A DNA stretch of 64,000 nt from a candidate division WOR-3 bacterium (GTDB taxonomy: Bacteria; Hydrothermota; Hydrothermia; LBFQ01). The stretch covers positions 17,195 through 81,194 of the forward strand of contig JALUCS010000097.1 in the NCBI GenBank assembly GCA_027050205.1. The letters are read 5' to 3'. Positions 57,462 through 64,000 of this stretch are shown in pieces. Within the stretch, counting starts at the first letter, position 1, and every line of letters begins with the position of its first letter. A model generated the notes under the pieces. It was not told where the DNA came from. It made no database searches and saw nothing but the letters and a program-made list of their open reading frames with translations. Position numbers and translations under genes: made by a program.

Positions 57462-59432
57462 TTGGCCAAGCGACACTACCTCCTTGAGGGGGAGAGGAGA
57501 CTCCGGCCGGAGGCGGGAAGAATAGCCGGTGTAGTGTGGTCCCCGTCCGGTGAGACCTTCGCCCCCCTCTCCGTAGACCTCGCCGTTTACGACCTCAATG
57601 GGAGAAGATTGCTCTATAAAAAACGTCCGTCCAGCGAGTACCTCCACATCGGCGTCGCCCTCGTAGGGGACTACGTCTTAGTGGGTAAGACTACGCCGGA
57701 GGTCTGGAGCCTTAAGACGGGTGAGGTCTTGAAGAAGCTGAAGGTCAATATATACTGGAGTTCGGGCATATCCGCCCCGTCCTTCTTCCTGTCCCAAGAT
57801 GCCTCCCTCGTCGCCGCCGTCTCAAGGTTGGAGACCAGCGCCCACCGCTTCACCGTATGGGATACCGGGACGTGGGAGACTGTGAAGAAGGGGTACATGG
57901 AGGGGAAGGGGAGGATAGTCTCCGTCGCCTTCTCGCCGGACAACTCCGTCCTGGCTCTGGGAGATGTCTTCGGGAACGTACGGTTCGTGGAGACTAGAGG
58001 GAAGGCCCGCAGGTACGGCAGGACCCCCCTGCCCGGTGTATCCGCCGTCGTCTCCTGGGATAACTGGGAGAACGAACCTTACGGGGATACCTACGTCGCG
58101 TGGAAAGGGGAGGAGCTCCTGGCTCTCTCGTGGGCGAAGTGGGGGACCCTGGCCGTCCCCGTCCTCTACGTCCTTGATGGCCAACGGCAGAGGGTTAGGG
58201 ACGTCTTAAACCTCTACGACCTCTTCAAGGCCTACGCTGTCCAAGAGGTTTTGACGGGGACGTACGGCCTTCCGGAGCTTTCCCTTCAGGCCTTCAGAGG
58301 AGGATGGGCCGTCAGCGTTGGAAGCGCTACCCTCCTCCTTGACGACTCCCTGAACCCGCGGGGCGTAATGTGGGAGGGGCCCGTATCCGTCTCCCCCGAC
58401 GGGAGGCACTACGTGGTCTACGGTGAGCGCACAAGGGGGGTTCAGGTCTATGACCTTAAGACGGGGAAGGCCGTCCTGCCCTACGTACCCATCGGTGAGG
58501 TGAAGGGGGCCGCGTACCTCCCGGAGCGGATAACCTTCTCAACCTTCAGGGGAGAGGTGGCATCCGTAGGGTACGAGGGCGAAGATGTAAGAGAACACAG
58601 GGTGCCGGGGAGGGCTATAGGGGTGGCCCCATGGAGGGAGGGGACGGCCCTTGTCCTGGCGTCCGTAGCCCCGGATCCGGACGAGATCCTGCTCTCCGAG
58701 AACACAGGTCGGGTTATGGCCTTCGTCCTTGACGGGGAGGGGGCGACAGACGGGTACGCCCTTCAGGATCTCCCCCTCGTCTATCCGAAGGGGGCCTACG
58801 GGCCATCCATCTTAAAAGACGGGAGGTTTGAGAAGGTTGAGGTCAGCCTGCTATCCGTACCGGAGGGTGAAATATTCGCCGTCCTGTCTGGAGACAGCGC
58901 CCACATCTACATCTACGGCAAAGGGGAGGCTATGCTGAAGTACGACTCCGTTTCGGCCCTTGGCTTCTATCGGGACGGCTTTGTGATCAAGCAGAACGGG
59001 GAGGTGATAGAGGTAAGGTTCAACGGTGAGGAGGAGAGGTTCCCGGTGGGTAAGGACTTCTTCCCCGTCCACGCCCCCGATTCCCCCGTCCCGGTACTCG
59101 TGTCCAGGGACTCCGTCTTCATAAACGGGGAGGAGGTCCCGTACGAAATGGATACGGGTATCGTCTTCATCCTCAAGCGGCTCGTCTTCGGAGGTCCCCC
59201 CTTCCTCCCCGCTCACTACGACGGGAAACGGAACACCCTCCTTATACCCTACGCCAACTACGTCCTCATCGTCCCCCTTGGCGGCTCACAACCGGAGGCG
59301 ATAAAGCTGGAGGAGAGGGAAACGTCCTCGGAGTACGCCGTAGGGAGCGTATTCTGTCGCAAAAACACCCTCTACGGTCTTGAGCTGGGCGAGATAAGAC
59401 GCTGGAGAAAGAGGGGGTTGAAATGTACTTAG
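57462..59432 (+). CDS. WD40/beta-propeller repeat protein
   Basis: VWSPSGETF, TVWDTGTWE, SVAFSPDNSVLALG and VSPDGRH repeats; TTG 8 nt after TATAAT. Confidence 0.75.
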   Translation: MAKRHYLLEGERRLRPEAGRIAGVVWSPSGETFAPLSVDLAVYDLNGRRLLYKKRPSSEYLHIGVALVGDYVLVGKTTPEVWSLKTGEVLKKLKVNIYWSSGISAPSFFLSQDASLVAAVSRLETSAHRFTVWDTGTWETVKKGYMEGKGRIVSVAFSPDNSVLALGDVFGNVRFVETRGKARRYGRTPLPGVSAVVSWDNWENEPYGDTYVAWKGEELLALSWAKWGTLAVPVLYVLDGQRQRVRDVLNLYDLFKAYAVQEVLTGTYGLPELSLQAFRGGWAVSVGSATLLLDDSLNPRGVMWEGPVSVSPDGRHYVVYGERTRGVQVYDLKTGKAVLPYVPIGEVKGAAYLPERITFSTFRGEVASVGYEGEDVREHRVPGRAIGVAPWREGTALVLASVAPDPDEILLSENTGRVMAFVLDGEGATDGYALQDLPLVYPKGAYGPSILKDGRFEKVEVSLLSVPEGEIFAVLSGDSAHIYIYGKGEAMLKYDSVSALGFYRDGFVIKQNGEVIEVRFNGEEERFPVGKDFFPVHAPDSPVPVLVSRDSVFINGEEVPYEMDTGIVFILKRLVFGGPPFLPAHYDGKRNTLLIPYANYVLIVPLGGSQPEAIKLEERETSSEYAVGSVFCRKNTLYGLELGEIRRWRKRGLKCT

Positions 59433-60142
59433 ACCTAAGACTCCGCCTTATGGGGGAGGAGGGCCTTAGGGAGATCCTCGGCGACCGGTTCGTAGAAAAA
59501 GGCCGGGAGATTGCGGAGAAGGGTGAGGTCCTCTTCTACGACTCCACGGATACGGAGGCGACGGCCGTTGTGTCTGGCTGCGAAGTACGAGCCTCCTACG
59601 ACTGGATGAGGGACGAGATGAAATTCAAATGCGGATGCCACGGGAAGGCCAAGGCGTGCGAGCATGTGGCCGCCCTCCTTCTGACCGTTCTGAAGGAAAA
59701 GGAGAGGTACGAGGCCCTAAGCGAAAAACTTTCATCAACGGCCCTCAAAGGGGATCTGGCCGTACCGGTGAGCCTTCCGGAGGTTAAGGGTACGTCCCTC
59801 GCCCTCTTCGTCTTCGGCTCTAACAGGGAAGAGATAGAGTCCATGGGGCTATCCCATTTCCTTGAGGTGATAAATCTGGCCGAGAGGATGGGGGTAAGGG
59901 ACCCCGTGGCCGTAGGTGCGGCGGCCGAGAAGGTCATAGACTTCTTCGGAGGGGAGCCGGAGGAGGCCGCAGACCGTATCCTGAAGACCTACGGGGACGA
60001 TGAGGAGGTTCTGACAGCCATCCTTAGGCTCCTTGTGCGTGCCTCGTATTTGGCACCTACGGAGAAGATAACGGCCACCCTCCGGTTGTTGGCCGGACGT
60101 ATGGAAGTGTGGGAGGATATAAAGGGGTACTTGAAGGTGTGA
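59423..60142 (+). CDS. SWIM zinc-finger protein
   Basis: CGC-HGKAKA-CEH (CxC..CxH) followed by VAALLL; overlaps the end of the WD40 gene. Confidence 0.8.
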   Translation: MYLDLRLRLMGEEGLREILGDRFVEKGREIAEKGEVLFYDSTDTEATAVVSGCEVRASYDWMRDEMKFKCGCHGKAKACEHVAALLLTVLKEKERYEALSEKLSSTALKGDLAVPVSLPEVKGTSLALFVFGSNREEIESMGLSHFLEVINLAERMGVRDPVAVGAAAEKVIDFFGGEPEEAADRILKTYGDDEEVLTAILRLLVRASYLAPTEKITATLRLLAGRMEVWEDIKGYLKV

Positions 60143-60152
60143 GGTAGAGACA

Positions 60153-60716
60153 TTATTTCAACACATCATCAACCTTAAGCCTAAAGCCTTTTAGGATGCA
60201 CGACTCAACCTCCCCGCTGCCAGCGGCGATACTGTGCAGGACGTACTTATCGTCCTTCAAACACCAAACTTCAATCGTCTTCAGTCCCGGATACACTATC
60301 CAGTACTCTTTGACGCCGTACCTCTCGTACAGGGCGAACTTTTCGTATCGGTCCCTTACGTAGCTACTCGGTGAAACGATCTCAACCGCCAAGTCCGGAG
60401 GGCCAAAGAGACGCCCGTCTTTGACGTTTTTCAGATTTTCGTTAGGGATGAATACTATATCGGGCTGGACGACTACAGTCTCGGATAGGATGACGTCAAA
60501 GGGAGCATAAACAACCACCCCACTGTTCCTATCGCTGACGAAGCGGTCAAGTGCTATCACTATAGCCTTAGAAATCAGTTGATGTTCAAAGGACGGTGCC
60601 GGCATTTCCTCCAACCTCCCGTTTATAAGTTCGTACCTTTTGTCATCGTCAAGTTGGAGATAGTCCTCGTAAGTTAAAACCTTCTCCTCCGGCTTATCAA
60701 CTACCGCTTCCCCCAT
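60153..60716 (-). CDS. Uma2/DUF820 family putative endonuclease, copy 6
   Basis: TYEDY..RYELING..EMPAP..EHQ..QPD..PDLAVEIVS..K..LY..YGVKEYW; ATG 60716 follows AAGGAGGT. Confidence 0.9.
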   Translation of the reverse strand: MGEAVVDKPEEKVLTYEDYLQLDDDKRYELINGRLEEMPAPSFEHQLISKAIVIALDRFVSDRNSGVVVYAPFDVILSETVVVQPDIVFIPNENLKNVKDGRLFGPPDLAVEIVSPSSYVRDRYEKFALYERYGVKEYWIVYPGLKTIEVWCLKDDKYVLHSIAAGSGEVESCILKGFRLKVDDVLK

Positions 60717-61263
60717 CTTCAACCTCCTTCAGCAGGTCCTTGAGCCTGAACTTCACCCCCTCTAAAAGCTCCACCTCCTCATCTTCACCGAAAGATTTAA
60801 CTCCTCCCTTGTCAATCACTACTACCTCTCTATCCTCCGGGAAAACCCAAACCTGCCTCTTCACCCCCCACCTCCTGTAGCCCTCCATCTTCTCAAGGAT
60901 GTAGGGTAGGCTGTCGGATGGCGATACTATTTCAACCACCAAATCTGGCGGCACCTCTATGGCTCCTCCCTTTAATTTCCACTTATTTCTAGAAATAGCC
61001 ACTACATCGGCTCCGCGGAGAGTTAGAGGAGAACGGGAGAGAAGCAGAGCCACATCTCCGACCAATACGAGCATCTGTTTCGTACCCTCCCTTATCAGGG
61101 AGGCTATTTCCATCTCCAAGAAACCGTGGGTGTCTCCCGTAGGCATCTTTCTAACCTCCTTACCTCTTACAACTTCCGAGACTTCTTCCGGTATCCTACC
61201 GCTTAGGTAGTCCTCGTAGGTCCAAATCCTCTCCTTTGGTTTCTCAAGTACGGCCGCCTTCAT
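60697..61263 (-). CDS. Uma2/DUF820 family, copy 5 (divergent subtype)
   Basis: TYEDY, H, GAD and PPDLVVEIVSP, YRRWGVKRQVW; little similarity to siblings beyond these. Confidence 0.85.
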   Translation of the reverse strand: MKAAVLEKPKERIWTYEDYLSGRIPEEVSEVVRGKEVRKMPTGDTHGFLEMEIASLIREGTKQMLVLVGDVALLLSRSPLTLRGADVVAISRNKWKLKGGAIEVPPDLVVEIVSPSDSLPYILEKMEGYRRWGVKRQVWVFPEDREVVVIDKGGVKSFGEDEEVELLEGVKFRLKDLLKEVEDGGSGS

Positions 61264-61823
61264 TTCATCACCTCCTCAACTTTTACTTTAAAGCCCTTGA
61301 GGACGCAGGATTCAACCTCCCCGTTGCCAGCGGCGATGCTATGCAGGACGTATTTGCCGTCCTTCAAACACCATACTTCAATCGCCTTCAGTTCCGGATA
61401 CACTATCCAGTACTCTTTGACGCCATACCTCTCGTACAGGGAGAACTTTTCATATCGGTCCCTTACGTAGCTCGTGGGGGATACCACCTCAACTACCAGA
61501 TCAGGAGAACCGAAGAGACGACCGTTCTTGACGTTCTTCAGGTTTTCGTCGGATATAAAGACTATATCGGGTTGGACAACCACCATCTCGGATAGGACCA
61601 CGTCAAAGGGAGCATCTACGACCTGTCCGATTCTCCTCTTCCTTACGTATTCCCAGAGGAGGAACTCTAAATCCCGTGAGATAACTTGATGCTCAAAGGA
61701 CGGTGCGGGCATTTCTTCCAACCTCCCGTTTATAAGCTCGTACCTCCTTTCATCCTCAAGCCTCAAATAGTCTTCGTAGGTCAAGACCTTTTTCTTAGGC
61801 CTGTCAAGTACGGCTTCCTTCAT
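61260..61823 (-). CDS. Uma2/DUF820 family, copy 4
   Basis: Same motifs; ATGA overlap with neighbours. Confidence 0.92.
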   Translation of the reverse strand: MKEAVLDRPKKKVLTYEDYLRLEDERRYELINGRLEEMPAPSFEHQVISRDLEFLLWEYVRKRRIGQVVDAPFDVVLSEMVVVQPDIVFISDENLKNVKNGRLFGSPDLVVEVVSPTSYVRDRYEKFSLYERYGVKEYWIVYPELKAIEVWCLKDGKYVLHSIAAGNGEVESCVLKGFKVKVEEVMK

Positions 61824-61942
61824 TTCAATACCTCCTCAACCTTTACTTTAAAACCCTTGAGGACGCAGGATTCAACCTCCCCGCTGCCGACGGCGACAGA
61901 ATGCAGTACGTACTTGCCGTCTTTCAAGCACCAGACCTCTAT
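61701..61942. repeat. ~242-bp near-identical direct repeat spanning the copy3/copy4 junction; second copy at 62255..62496 (554-bp period)
   Basis: Aligned by eye from CGGTGCGGGCATTTC to CCAGACCTCTAT; few mismatches, clustered in the short N-terminal KKK/GE patch. Confidence 0.88.
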
Positions 61943-62377
61943 TGCCCTGTATTCCGGATACACCAACCAGTATTCCTTAACCCCGTATCTCTCGTAGAGG
62001 GAGAACTTCTCGTACCTGTCCCTCGCGTAGCTACTCGGTGAGACCACCTCAACCACAAGGTCGGGAGGGCCGAAGATACGACCCCTCACTTCGTTTTTAC
62101 CCTGCTGGAAAACGATAACTATATCGGGCTGTAAGACGACGTTCTCCGAAAGTATAACATCCACAGGGGACGGTAAAACCTCCCATTTGGATTCGTCCTC
62201 CATCGGTAAGATCGCCTTCATAAGCCTCTTAAGTATCCTCTGATGCTCCGTCGTCGGTGCGGGCATTTCTTCCAACCTCCCGTTTATAAGCTCGTACCTC
62301 CTTTCATCCTCAAGCCTCAAATAGTCCTCGTAGGTCAAAACCTCCCCCTTCGGCCTATCAAGTACGGCTTCCTTCAT
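61820..62377 (-). CDS. Uma2/DUF820 family, copy 3
   Basis: Same motifs. Confidence 0.92.
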   Translation of the reverse strand: MKEAVLDRPKGEVLTYEDYLRLEDERRYELINGRLEEMPAPTTEHQRILKRLMKAILPMEDESKWEVLPSPVDVILSENVVLQPDIVIVFQQGKNEVRGRIFGPPDLVVEVVSPSSYARDRYEKFSLYERYGVKEYWLVYPEYRAIEVWCLKDGKYVLHSVAVGSGEVESCVLKGFKVKVEEVLK

Positions 62378-62496
62378 TTCAGTACCTCCTCAACCTTTAC
62401 TTTAAAGCCCTTGAGGACGCAGGATTCAACCTCCCCACTGCCGACGGCGACAGAATGCAGTACGTACTTGCCGTCTTTCAAGCACCAGACCTCTAT
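62255..62496. repeat. Junction repeat spanning copy2/copy3
   Basis: Matches 61701..61942. Confidence 0.88.
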
Positions 62497-62937
62497 CACC
62501 TTCTCACGGGGCAGAACGATCCAGTACTCCCTTACGCCATACTTCTCGTAAAGCCTGAACTTCTCGTATCTGTCTCTCGTGTAGCTGCTCGGTGAGACTA
62601 CCTCAACCACTAAGTCAGGAGGGCCGAATAATCTTCCCTGTTTGACATCCTTTAAAGTCTCGTTGGATATAAAAATCACATCCGGCTGGACGACAACGGT
62701 CTCGGAGAGTATGACGTCAAAGGGAGCGGGGAGAACTTCCCCCAAATTGCCTTTATCGGAAAAGCCACGCATTATAAGGATTATTTTGGATATGATCCTC
62801 TGATGTTCAAGGCCTGGCGCAGGCATCTCGTACAACCTCCCGTTTATAAGCTCATAACGCTTTTCATCCTCAAGTCGGAGGTAATCTTCATAGGTTAGGA
62901 CCTTCTCCCTCGGCCTATCAAGAACCGCTTCCTTCAT
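62374..62937 (-). CDS. Uma2/DUF820 family, copy 2
   Basis: Same motifs. Confidence 0.92.
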   Translation of the reverse strand: MKEAVLDRPREKVLTYEDYLRLEDEKRYELINGRLYEMPAPGLEHQRIISKIILIMRGFSDKGNLGEVLPAPFDVILSETVVVQPDVIFISNETLKDVKQGRLFGPPDLVVEVVSPSSYTRDRYEKFRLYEKYGVREYWIVLPREKVIEVWCLKDGKYVLHSVAVGSGEVESCVLKGFKVKVEEVLK

Positions 62938-63494
62938 TTCAGTACCTCCTCAACCTTCACCTTGAGGCCCTTGAGGACGCACGACTCAACCTCTCCGCTG
63001 CCAGCGGCGACGGAGTGCAGGGCGTACTTGCCGTCTTTCAGGCACCAGACTTCTATTGCCCTGTATTCCGGATATACCAACCAATATTCCTTAACGCTGT
63101 GCTTCTCGTACAGAGAGAACTTCTCGTACCTGTCGCGGTGATAACTACCCGGTGAAACTATCTCAACGACAAGGTCAGGGGGGCCGAATATACGCTCTTT
63201 CACAATATGGGTCCGTTCTGCAGCCACGAAGAGAATGTCAGGCTGGACAACGGTTGTTTCGGAGAGTATCACATCCACAGGCGCATACAGGACAAGACCC
63301 AGATTCCCTTTACCGACGAACCTCTCCAGAAGGATAAAGAGACGCTTTGAGATTATCTGATGTTCCGTCGTAGGTGCGGGCATTTCTATTAACCTCCCGT
63401 TTATGAGTTCGTACCTCTTATCGTCCTCAAGCCTCAAATAGTCCTCGTAGGTTAAAACCTTTTTCTTAGGCCCATCAACTACCTCTTCCTTCAT
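62934..63494 (-). CDS. Uma2/DUF820 family, copy 1 (first in transcript)
   Basis: Same motifs; SD GGGAGG at 63501-63506 and TAGAAT at 63523-63528 upstream. Confidence 0.92.
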   Translation of the reverse strand: MKEEVVDGPKKKVLTYEDYLRLEDDKRYELINGRLIEMPAPTTEHQIISKRLFILLERFVGKGNLGLVLYAPVDVILSETTVVQPDILFVAAERTHIVKERIFGPPDLVVEIVSPGSYHRDRYEKFSLYEKHSVKEYWLVYPEYRAIEVWCLKDGKYALHSVAAGSGEVESCVLKGLKVKVEEVLK

Positions 63495-63548
63495 CTTAAA
63501 CCTCCCGTTTCCTGCCGTCCATATTCTAAGGCCGATGGCAGACGGTAA

Positions 63549-64000
63549 TCAGTGCCTGAAGAGCCGCTTCCCCGTAAAGACCAGCTTTATGCCCAACTCC
63601 TTCGCCTTTTCAATAACCTCCGCATCCCTCTTGGACCCTCCCGGCTCGGCCACCACCTTGACGCCGAAGGTGTGCGCCCACTCTACGGAGTCGGGGAAGG
63701 GGAAGAAGGCGTCCGAAACGAGGGTGGCACCGTAGGCGTTCTCGTCCGCCTTGATCAGGGCGACCCTTACGGCCGTGACGCGGTCCACGAGGCCGCTACC
63801 CGTACCGAAGAGAGTCTTATCCTTAACCACGACGGCGGCGTTGGATCTGGCCCACTTTACCATCTTGAGGCCGAAGATGATGTCTTCCACCTCCCGGTCG
63901 GTCAGCGGTTCCGTCTTGCTCTCTATGTACTCGTAAGGAGGGTCAAAGTCGGTGGTCTGGACGAGGATGTCCCCTCCCTGCATGAGCATCTGAAGGTGCG
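63549..64000 (-). CDS. purH: AICAR transformylase/IMP cyclohydrolase, C-terminal part (truncated by window edge)
   Basis: KWARSNAAV, GSGLVDRVTAV, SDAFFPFPD, EPGGSKRD and TGKRLFRH motifs. Confidence 0.93.
   Translation of the reverse strand, partial: HLQMLMQGGDILVQTTDFDPPYEYIESKTEPLTDREVEDIIFGLKMVKWARSNAAVVVKDKTLFGTGSGLVDRVTAVRVALIKADENAYGATLVSDAFFPFPDSVEWAHTFGVKVVAEPGGSKRDAEVIEKAKELGIKLVFTGKRLFRH

Follow-up and report, generated by a model that had tools for sequence, protein, structure and literature searches.

A tandem Uma2 array in a thermophilic WOR-3 bacterium: mosaic genes with shared ends and old, private helix types

Why would a bacterium keep six copies of one putative nuclease gene in a row, nearly alike at their ends and very different in their cores? 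The question is raised by a 64,000-nt stretch of DNA, here called the window, from a candidate division WOR-3 bacterium (assembly GCA_027050205.1, contig JALUCS010000097.1, positions 17,195 to 81,194). The open reading frame (ORF) list of the window shows six intact, contiguous ORFs of the Uma2 family, each of 185-188 amino acids (aa), head to tail on its minus strand at 60153-63494; there is no other plausible gene between them, and the remaining ORFs lie wholly inside Uma2 genes. The answer that we favor, with a probability of roughly 60%, is that the array is a co-expressed repertoire of active nucleases, in which a private helix and loop would set the specificity of each enzyme and which is reshuffled through the conserved gene ends.

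The six genes fall into two classes. Genes 1 (62934..63494, 186 aa), 2 (62374..62937, 187 aa), 3 (61820..62377, 185 aa), 4 (61260..61823, 187 aa) and 6 (60153..60716, 187 aa when read from the ATG at 60716) have 70-74% mutual identity and are called type A. Gene 5 (60697..61263, 188 aa, with an acidic tail) is only ~31% identical to type A, and its sequence places it in a separate subfamily, which we name type B. All six proteins match the Pfam family Uma2 (PF05685) at 50.8-129.9 bits, against a curated cut-off of 27 bits, and the Pfam search of the six returned no other family. The five type A proteins score ~123-130 bits (E ~1e-36 to 1e-38; 9e-38 for gene 1). The gene 5 protein scores 50.8 bits (E 2e-13) and keeps the His, Asp, Glu and Lys of the family's active site.

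Divergence is spread very unevenly along these genes. In a codon alignment of the five type A genes, the ends (codons 1-41 and ~146-186) have nucleotide identities of 0.8-1.0 with perfect patches that are specific to particular pairs: genes 3 and 4 are 100% identical over codons 21-40, genes 2 and 3 are 96-100% identical over codons 151-185, and genes 4 and 6 are 93-96% identical over codons 121-155. Identity between paralogues falls to 0.2-0.5 in a first hypervariable segment (HV1, codons 46-70) and to ~0.5 in a second (HV2, codons 86-105). The first-pass annotation of this DNA had spoken of variable cores of ~310 nt; the non-uniform divergence stands, whereas the extent does not, since the truly divergent parts amount to ~60 nt (HV1) and ~45 nt (HV2). 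The HV1 of gene 2 (codons 46-66, the helix after the catalytic His45) lies at 62740..62802, and its minus-strand equivalents are at ~63297-63359 (gene 1), 62180-62242 (gene 3), 61626-61688 (gene 4), 61066-61122 (gene 5) and 60519-60581 (gene 6).

The conserved ends meet at the gene junctions. Four of the five junctions (genes 1 to 5) are ATGA stop/start overlaps preceded by GAGGAGGT(A/G)(C/T/A)TGAA, so that, as first annotated, the last codons (E-E-V) of each upstream gene also spell the Shine-Dalgarno (SD) sequence of the next gene (GAGGAGGT). The fifth junction, between genes 5 and 6, is a 20-nt overlap if gene 6 starts at ATG 60716; this is most likely its start, judging by an AAGGAGG that ends 6 nt before it, and a TTG at 60722 was rejected for want of usable spacing to the SD. 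A junction block of ~242 bp recurring with a 554-bp period had also been proposed, and it holds up on measurement. Block 1 (61701..61942, minus strand; from the 3' end of gene 3 through the ATGA overlap to codon 41 of gene 4) and block 2 (62255..62496, minus strand; the corresponding part of genes 2 and 3 with their overlap, again up to codon 41) are identical at 231 of 242 positions (95.5%) at an offset of 554 nt, and on both sides identity drops to the random level within ~20 nt. The longest exact repeat is 72 nt. Tandem Repeats Finder reported no match here; the period of the array exceeds its 500-nt limit.

Each gene is a mosaic of modules, with shared ends of ~41 codons at the start and ~40-80 codons at the stop and a center that holds HV1 (~20 residues) and HV2 (~15 residues), and gene conversion or unequal crossing-over keeps the ends alike between neighboring and distant copies, which is concerted evolution. 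A GENECONV-type permutation of the longest shared run of polymorphic sites is significant (p <= 0.001) for gene pairs 1-3, 2-3, 2-4 and 3-4, and a test of the PHI (pairwise homoplasy index) type on the array genes gives p = 0.013. The nearest relative of the N-terminal and last C-terminal segments of genes 2, 3 and 4 is a gene of the same array; that of the core of genes 2, 3 and 6 is in another species. The HV1 segments of genes 2, 3 and 6 have 83-96% nucleotide identity to copies in two related species (G002 and G004; such handles denote related genomes) and do not exceed 55% with any paralogue of their own genome. Over the C-terminal 41 codons, gene 2 is 96% identical to gene 3, and no copy from another species exceeds 85%. 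The two variable segments are themselves separable: the best HV2 match of gene 2 is not its HV1 partner.

How old are the cores? We aligned 62 type A copies from this genome and three congeneric species, a sample in which HV1 takes the form of 29 discrete helix types, 15 of them found in at least two species. Gene 1 carries type a16, seen once among the 62 copies. Types a7 (gene 2) and a6 (gene 6) are common to G002 and G004. Gene 3 carries a11, and its core (codons 46-103) has 89-96% nucleotide identity to a G002 copy; type a1 of gene 4 recurs on contigs C122, C49 and C73 of the same genome and in G004 and G005. HV1 segments of the same type differ at a proportion of nonsynonymous sites (pN) of mostly 0.02-0.10, up to 0.19, and of synonymous sites (pS) of 0.1-0.6, with a ratio of nonsynonymous to synonymous divergence (dN/dS) of 0.03-0.4 per pair and 0.62 in one pair. 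Pooled over 15 independent same-type pairs between species, dN/dS is 0.23 for HV1, 0.14 for HV2 and 0.06-0.12 elsewhere. The HV1 pS of 0.39 matches the species baseline of 0.15-0.38 given by two neighboring genes (the beta-propeller-like and SWIM-like genes described below). The flanks of the same pairs have a pS of 0.55-0.70, above that baseline, and hence are not orthologous. It follows that the cores were vertically inherited and conserved while sequence from other paralogues replaced the ends again and again. The core types are discrete and old, inherited across species and held by purifying selection. In type B genes the same helix is hypervariable, again with types common to several species.

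The site behind purH, the gene directly upstream of the array, records how such arrays turn over. The number of Uma2 copies 3' of purH is six in the window, five in G002, one in G004 and zero in G005, G006, G003 and G007. The window array reads a16, a7, a11, a1, B, a6; that of G002, which starts 38 nt after purH, reads a13, B, a20, a2, a5, so that the two have no helix type in common. G004 has a single Uma2 gene with a third, different helix, followed by an ORF read as glmS by eye. In the purH-linked arrays of all three species the leader and the first ~40 codons are conserved and the HV1 of the first gene differs. On contig C86 of G002, the type of gene 3 precedes that of gene 2, the reverse of their order in the window. 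Copy number and order, which the first-pass annotation had named as a test of its reading, are therefore not fixed between related species, and its proposal that the junction repeats allow exchange, expansion, contraction and core swapping is backed by this turnover together with the recombination tests and the pattern of nearest relatives.

The variable segments take on meaning from the predicted fold. A variant active site, His ... PD ... EXX ... K, has been described for COG4636 (Feder and Bujnicki, PMC551604), and its residues H45, D86, E111/112 and K125/126 do not vary among the six window proteins or among 26 aligned copies from the genome. An AlphaFold2 model of gene 2 (predicted local distance difference test, pLDDT, 91.7) superposes in Foldseek on the solved Uma2 structures 6okh (TM, template-modeling score, 0.91-0.95), 1wdj (0.79), 9y1l and 3ot2; at the sequence level 6okh is matched at E 2e-33. 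By this model the protein has the PD-(D/E)XK fold with an N-terminal subdomain as in TT1808. HV1 corresponds in the model to a long helix (residues 43-63) that begins with His45. Its positions 48, 52, 56, 59 and 60 are hydrophobic in 85-100% of copies and form a buried stripe, and the remaining positions have entropies of 2.6-3.5 bits, with 53, 54 and 57 often aromatic (48-66% hydrophobic or aromatic). HV2 comprises the end of a strand, a short helix and a loop, all situated between the PD and EXX strands.

On the favored reading, each paralogue would have metal-dependent nuclease activity, the helix and loop private to it would recognize a nucleic-acid substrate or a protein partner, one array would express several such specificities from a single transcript, and the conserved ends would supply the homology for adding, losing and recombining modules. 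The evolutionary part of this scheme, reshuffling through conserved ends, is well supported; the biochemical part we infer. Several points weigh against it. We found no report in the literature of a biochemical activity for any Uma2 member. The four solved structures are structural-genomics entries without an assigned function, none of them from a studied array, and a literature search on the Uma2 entries of the Protein Data Bank turned up no functional work. That HV1 determines specificity we infer from its position and variability. Independent recombination of HV1 and HV2 is awkward if both form one recognition surface. Finally, all eight Uma2 arrays of the genome lie among housekeeping genes and not in defense islands.

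The positions of HV1 and HV2 fit either substrate contact or an oligomer interface, and the second possibility leads to a different reading, in which the variable helix is a protein-protein interface and paralogues pair only with themselves, or with a short isoform of their own, and so avoid mixed and possibly harmful oligomers. At positions 53, 54 and 57 the residues are of a kind met more often in an interface than on a face that is exposed to solvent or contacts DNA. Each of the solved Uma2 entries contains at least two chains, and cross-pairing would be a real risk for six paralogues translated from coupled frames. The independent assortment of HV1 and HV2 also fits an interface, as does an internal start for a short isoform that appears conserved (see below). 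However, in the model HV1 directly follows the catalytic His, a position also suited to contact with substrate, and we regard this alternative as doubtful.

Uma2 genes are not confined to this locus. The host is represented by a thermophilic metagenome-assembled genome (MAG) of 2.05 Mb in 135 contigs (57% GC, 93.5% complete), and related MAGs come from hydrothermal vents and hot springs. A profile search of the genome gave 36 Uma2 matches, none with internal stops, and the genome holds at least eight arrays (36 or more copies). Six arrays consist of types A and B: that of the window contig (C97, six genes), C122 (six), C104 and C49 (five each), and C73 and C132 (three each). Two more, at C93:7603-10717 (five genes) and C47:12749-15232 (four genes), belong to a subfamily of ~206 aa, type C. 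Type C proteins end in LLKRP or LLKQP, and their genes are one nucleotide apart (stop TAG, one base, ATG); two members fall below the Pfam search threshold. One or two type B genes occur in five of the six type A arrays, usually as an A-B-A unit that recurs in three other species of the genus. We considered fixed partnerships between type B and type A genes and rejected them: the same type B helix type has different type A neighbors across species. A protein tree does not group the copies by array, and the six genes of C97 require six changes on it. The neighbors of the eight arrays, read by eye and not by Pfam search, are purH, cmk, coaE, pyrB, glyQ, a tRNA synthetase gene, dcd, hutU and pstB. 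Five arrays lie 24-61 nt behind a co-directional gene, and three face a divergent gene.

Paralogue cassettes of Uma2 have been described before (Feder and Bujnicki 2005, PMC551604; Makarova, Wolf and Koonin 2009, PMC2701414), the latter authors classing Uma2 as a 'likely solo toxin' that forms such cassettes. The window array and the seven others show the same arrangement of adjacent, co-oriented paralogues without a known antitoxin partner. Those papers, however, go no further than adjacency and the number of copies, in rows of up to four genes and in cyanobacterial or Thermus hosts; the WOR-3 arrays add homogenized ends, conserved helix types (at least 29), turnover at an orthologous site, the recurrent A-B-A unit and a conserved leader. 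The array does not resemble a type II toxin-antitoxin operon, as it is composed of Uma2 genes only and includes no small partner gene of another family. The PDC-S03 models of PADLOC-DB recognize type A proteins at E 1e-43 to 1e-44 (4.9e-43 and 1.9e-44) and type B at 5e-10, but PDC-S03 is an unvalidated candidate defense system, the present arrays lie outside defense islands, and a literature search returned no paper that mentions it. For the family at large, the literature also carries the idea of a restriction-like defense.

Feder and Bujnicki also proposed that Uma2/COG4636 genes are selfish and recombinogenic (PMC551604). Applied here, the cassettes would be elements whose products or repeats provoke recombination without benefit to the host, and the helix types would mark old lineages. 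The distribution of copies favors this reading: the other six species of the genus have 3, 27, 5, 31, 24 and 3 copies, so that the genus spans 3 to 36, and counts are 0-34 in the sister genus, up to 11 in a sister family of the same order and 0 or 1 in the other families of the class, most of which has zero. The copy numbers of relatives are lower bounds, since many arrays stop at contig ends. The arrays occupy gaps between housekeeping genes and places where synteny breaks. Composition points the same way. As first annotated, the array is richer in AT than its surroundings (GC 0.48-0.52, against 0.58-0.64 in the flanks and 0.57 in the genome), and third codon positions (GC3) of every Uma2 array in the genome have a GC content of 0.60-0.65 where the genome median is 0.77, and second positions (GC2) one of 0.31-0.33 where it is 0.42. 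The nearest relatives outside WOR-3, at 48-50% identity, are in Aquificaceae MAGs from similar habitats. Low GC was nevertheless not conclusive as proof of foreign origin, being partly a matter of amino-acid composition (GC2) and partly of GC3. Against selfishness, 36 copies have no internal stop, dN/dS is 0.06-0.23, the catalytic residues are invariant, and translational coupling and the leader are maintained; no transposase, integrase or terminal repeats flank any of the eight arrays. Purifying selection does not decide the matter, because selfish elements with an active nuclease would show it as well, but on the whole we consider this explanation unlikely.

The first-pass annotation called the array 'diversifying', and ongoing positive selection on the cores, as in an arms race, would make it a fast-evolving specificity array. 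HV1 is indeed the least conserved segment between paralogues, at 30% amino-acid identity against 63-75% for the N-terminal, middle and C-terminal segments and 51% for HV2, and its dN/dS, 0.23, is 2-4 times that of other segments (0.06-0.14). Between types the divergence has reached saturation, which leaves room for old episodes of positive selection. The claim nonetheless finds no support: copies of the same type differ little between species (pN mostly 0.02-0.10, pooled dN/dS 0.23), 15 of the 29 types are found in at least two species, and the array is identical in a second MAG. A diversity-generating retroelement was rejected on similar grounds, as the helix types are conserved between species and the 93.5%-complete genome has no match to the reverse transcriptase family RVT_1. 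Ongoing diversification is improbable, more so than either of the two preceding alternatives.

A misassembled repeat, with copy number or order wrong, is hardly credible: the MAG is fragmented into 135 contigs and the arrays of many relatives end at contig ends, but no two genes share a core, exact repeats reach 72 nt at most, every one of the six frames is intact and two other assemblies are colinear. One of these, the separately assembled MAG GCA_015494805.1, contains all six genes with 0 mismatches, which makes the assembly collapse that the first-pass annotation had named as a possible refutation unlikely. The other, scaffold_19623 of metagenome ERZ23495249, covers four and a half genes in colinear order. 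Its sole 11 differences in the array (62327-62437) fall at the sites that distinguish the two junction blocks, all with the block 1 allele; the remaining 2.2 kb of the array is identical, and the flanking genes differ at 15 sites. This pattern may reflect either a gene-conversion tract of 111-242 nt or bubble-popping by the assembler, and the latter, which would produce the same result and could itself speak for an artifact, led us to reject the homogenized block as proof of live gene conversion. Within the population, the array looks stable.

The surroundings of the array bear on its expression. purH lies upstream on the same strand, 54 nt from gene 1 (63495..63548), and this leader contains a -10-like TAGAAT (63528..63523, minus strand) and the SD GGGAGG. 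In G002 and G004, too, the arrays behind purH begin with the leader sequence CCATCGGCCTTAGAATA...CGGGAGGTT, and an alignment of array leaders shows the TAGAAT box conserved in the three species. Similar boxes (TAGAAT, TAAAAT, TATAAT, TACAAT) occur 22-28 nt before the first ATG in five arrays (C97, C104, C132, C73 and C122), three of whose leaders have CCTTA(G/A)AAT in common. Scans for sigma-70 promoter and terminator consensus sequences gave chance-level counts, with no full promoter at the array head, and Rfam detected no RNA family in 59500-64000. Of the first description as six head-to-tail genes under one promoter, the gene order stands; the single promoter is not shown, with purH 54 nt upstream and a -10-like TAGAAT in the gap.

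Downstream, at 57462-60142 on the plus strand, lie two genes with a 10-nt overlap, one of 656 aa that is beta-propeller-like and one of 239 aa. The shorter protein, for which no Pfam family was found, has a Cys/His cluster, CGCHGKAKACEH, that is SWIM-like by eye. The pair is conserved in four species, in three congeners has no adjoining Uma2 gene, and abuts purM in G005 and an unrelated gene in G004; synteny breaks exactly at the start of the Uma2 array. The window purH is closest to those of G006, G002 and G004 (87-93% amino-acid identity, against only 77-82% for G005), and the beta-propeller gene, 4 kb from purH, is closest to that of G005 (93%). The discordance between the two genes suggests between-species recombination around the array.

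The target-recognition domains of type I HsdS subunits are likewise old, divergent modules with conserved flanks through which they are swapped by recombination, and their types are common to several species. The likeness would be one of working mode only. The array has no homology to HsdS, HsdM or HsdR, its neighbors are purH and the beta-propeller/SWIM-like pair, inverted repeats and a recombinase are missing, and each Uma2 copy, having a start and a stop of its own, is a complete and presumably expressed gene.

A further signal lies inside the conserved N-terminal segment. Across the 62 type A copies, codons 31-35 are nearly fixed (ATA in 60 of 60, AAC in 59 of 61, GGG in 61 of 62, AGG in 61 of 61, and TTG in 51 with TTA in 11), although the major codon usually has a share of 0.3-0.6 at conserved residues with four- or six-fold degeneracy in this sample. 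They spell a 15-nt island, ATAAACGGGAGGTTG, 9 nt before the ATG of Met38, which is itself present in 59 of 62 copies. In the five type A genes of the array the island lies at 63390-63404, 62833-62847, 62273-62287, 61719-61733 and 60612-60626 (minus strand), and the internal ATGs of the six genes are at 63383, 62826, 62266, 61712, 61146 (type B, Met40) and 60605. The resulting SD-like GGGAGGT precedes the internal ATG by 9 nt in this lineage. As a positive control, the junction SD codon E183 is likewise constrained (GAG 0.96); as a negative control, G167, another site that can form GGAGGT, is not (GGG 27, GGT 19, GGA 15). Type B has different residues at this place (G-K-E-V) and yet encodes AAGGAGGT 8 nt before Met40. 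Synonymous constraint is also seen at the catalytic codons of type A, His45 (CAT 0.95), Glu111 (GAG 0.90) and Lys125 (AAG 0.97), and at Val110 (GTT 0.96); in gene 2, codons 45, 110-111 and 125 lie at 62803-62805, 62605-62610 and 62563-62565 (minus strand).

The signal extends to distant homologues. Among 79 Uma2 ORFs outside WOR-3, from many phyla, the codon equivalent to 38 is ATG in 57, GTG in 16 and TTG in 3 (76 of 79). Val at this position is always GTG (16 of 16, background 0.32) and Leu always TTG (3 of 3, background 0.18), CTG never occurs and Ile does so twice, and Val one codon earlier is GTC in 6 of 6. The invariant upstream Gly has a third-position purine in 70 of 77; an effect of Gly-Glu codon context was rejected as the cause, since control Gly codons before Glu in the same loci have a purine in 38%. 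In a second sample of 28 genes, 26 have a start-capable codon within a three-codon window, and a divergent Uma2 subfamily that uses GGC is mostly without Met at the internal start position. Read at the sequence level, this choice of codons matches the order in which bacteria prefer start codons. Saturation of the neighboring synonymous sites makes a mutational footprint an unlikely cause. The pattern suggests a conserved internal start, which would yield a ~150-aa protein lacking the N-terminal subdomain. Two caveats apply to it: GGAGGT is frequent in Uma2 genes (6.5 per kb, against 1.4 per kb genome-wide), and the start signal is also present in Bacteroidota, which make little use of SD pairing.

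A bolder extension is that every Uma2 gene encodes two proteins, and that the short form pairs with its own full-length nuclease through the type-specific helix and restrains it. We rate this as a long shot. The Tn5 transposase inhibitor is a precedent, an N-terminally shortened product of the transposase gene that arises from an internal start and restrains the full-length enzyme. Uma2 has no homology to Tn5, and the putative short form is likened to the inhibitor by its internal ribosome-binding site and start codon only. If the extension were true, it would be a one-gene arrangement of toxin and brake similar to that of Tn5, and it would explain both the private helices of co-expressed paralogues and the spread of a potentially dangerous nuclease family without partner genes.

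Uma2/COG4636 is among the larger bacterial families without a known function, making up 1-2% of genes in some cyanobacteria, Thermus and this WOR-3 lineage, and its successive labels have been selfish element, solo toxin and defense candidate. The cassettes themselves are already known, but this array is unusually informative: together with the other 35 copies of the genome and the orthologous site in relatives, it amounts to a natural experiment. Recombination erases the differences among the copies except for one helix and one loop beside the active site, and selection keeps some 30 versions of the helix apart over speciation. Being spared from homogenization, the helix and loop are the likeliest place for residues that determine specificity. 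Of the leads, the internal-start signal is the most novel, and if the start is real, it would be a regulatory principle for the whole Uma2 family.

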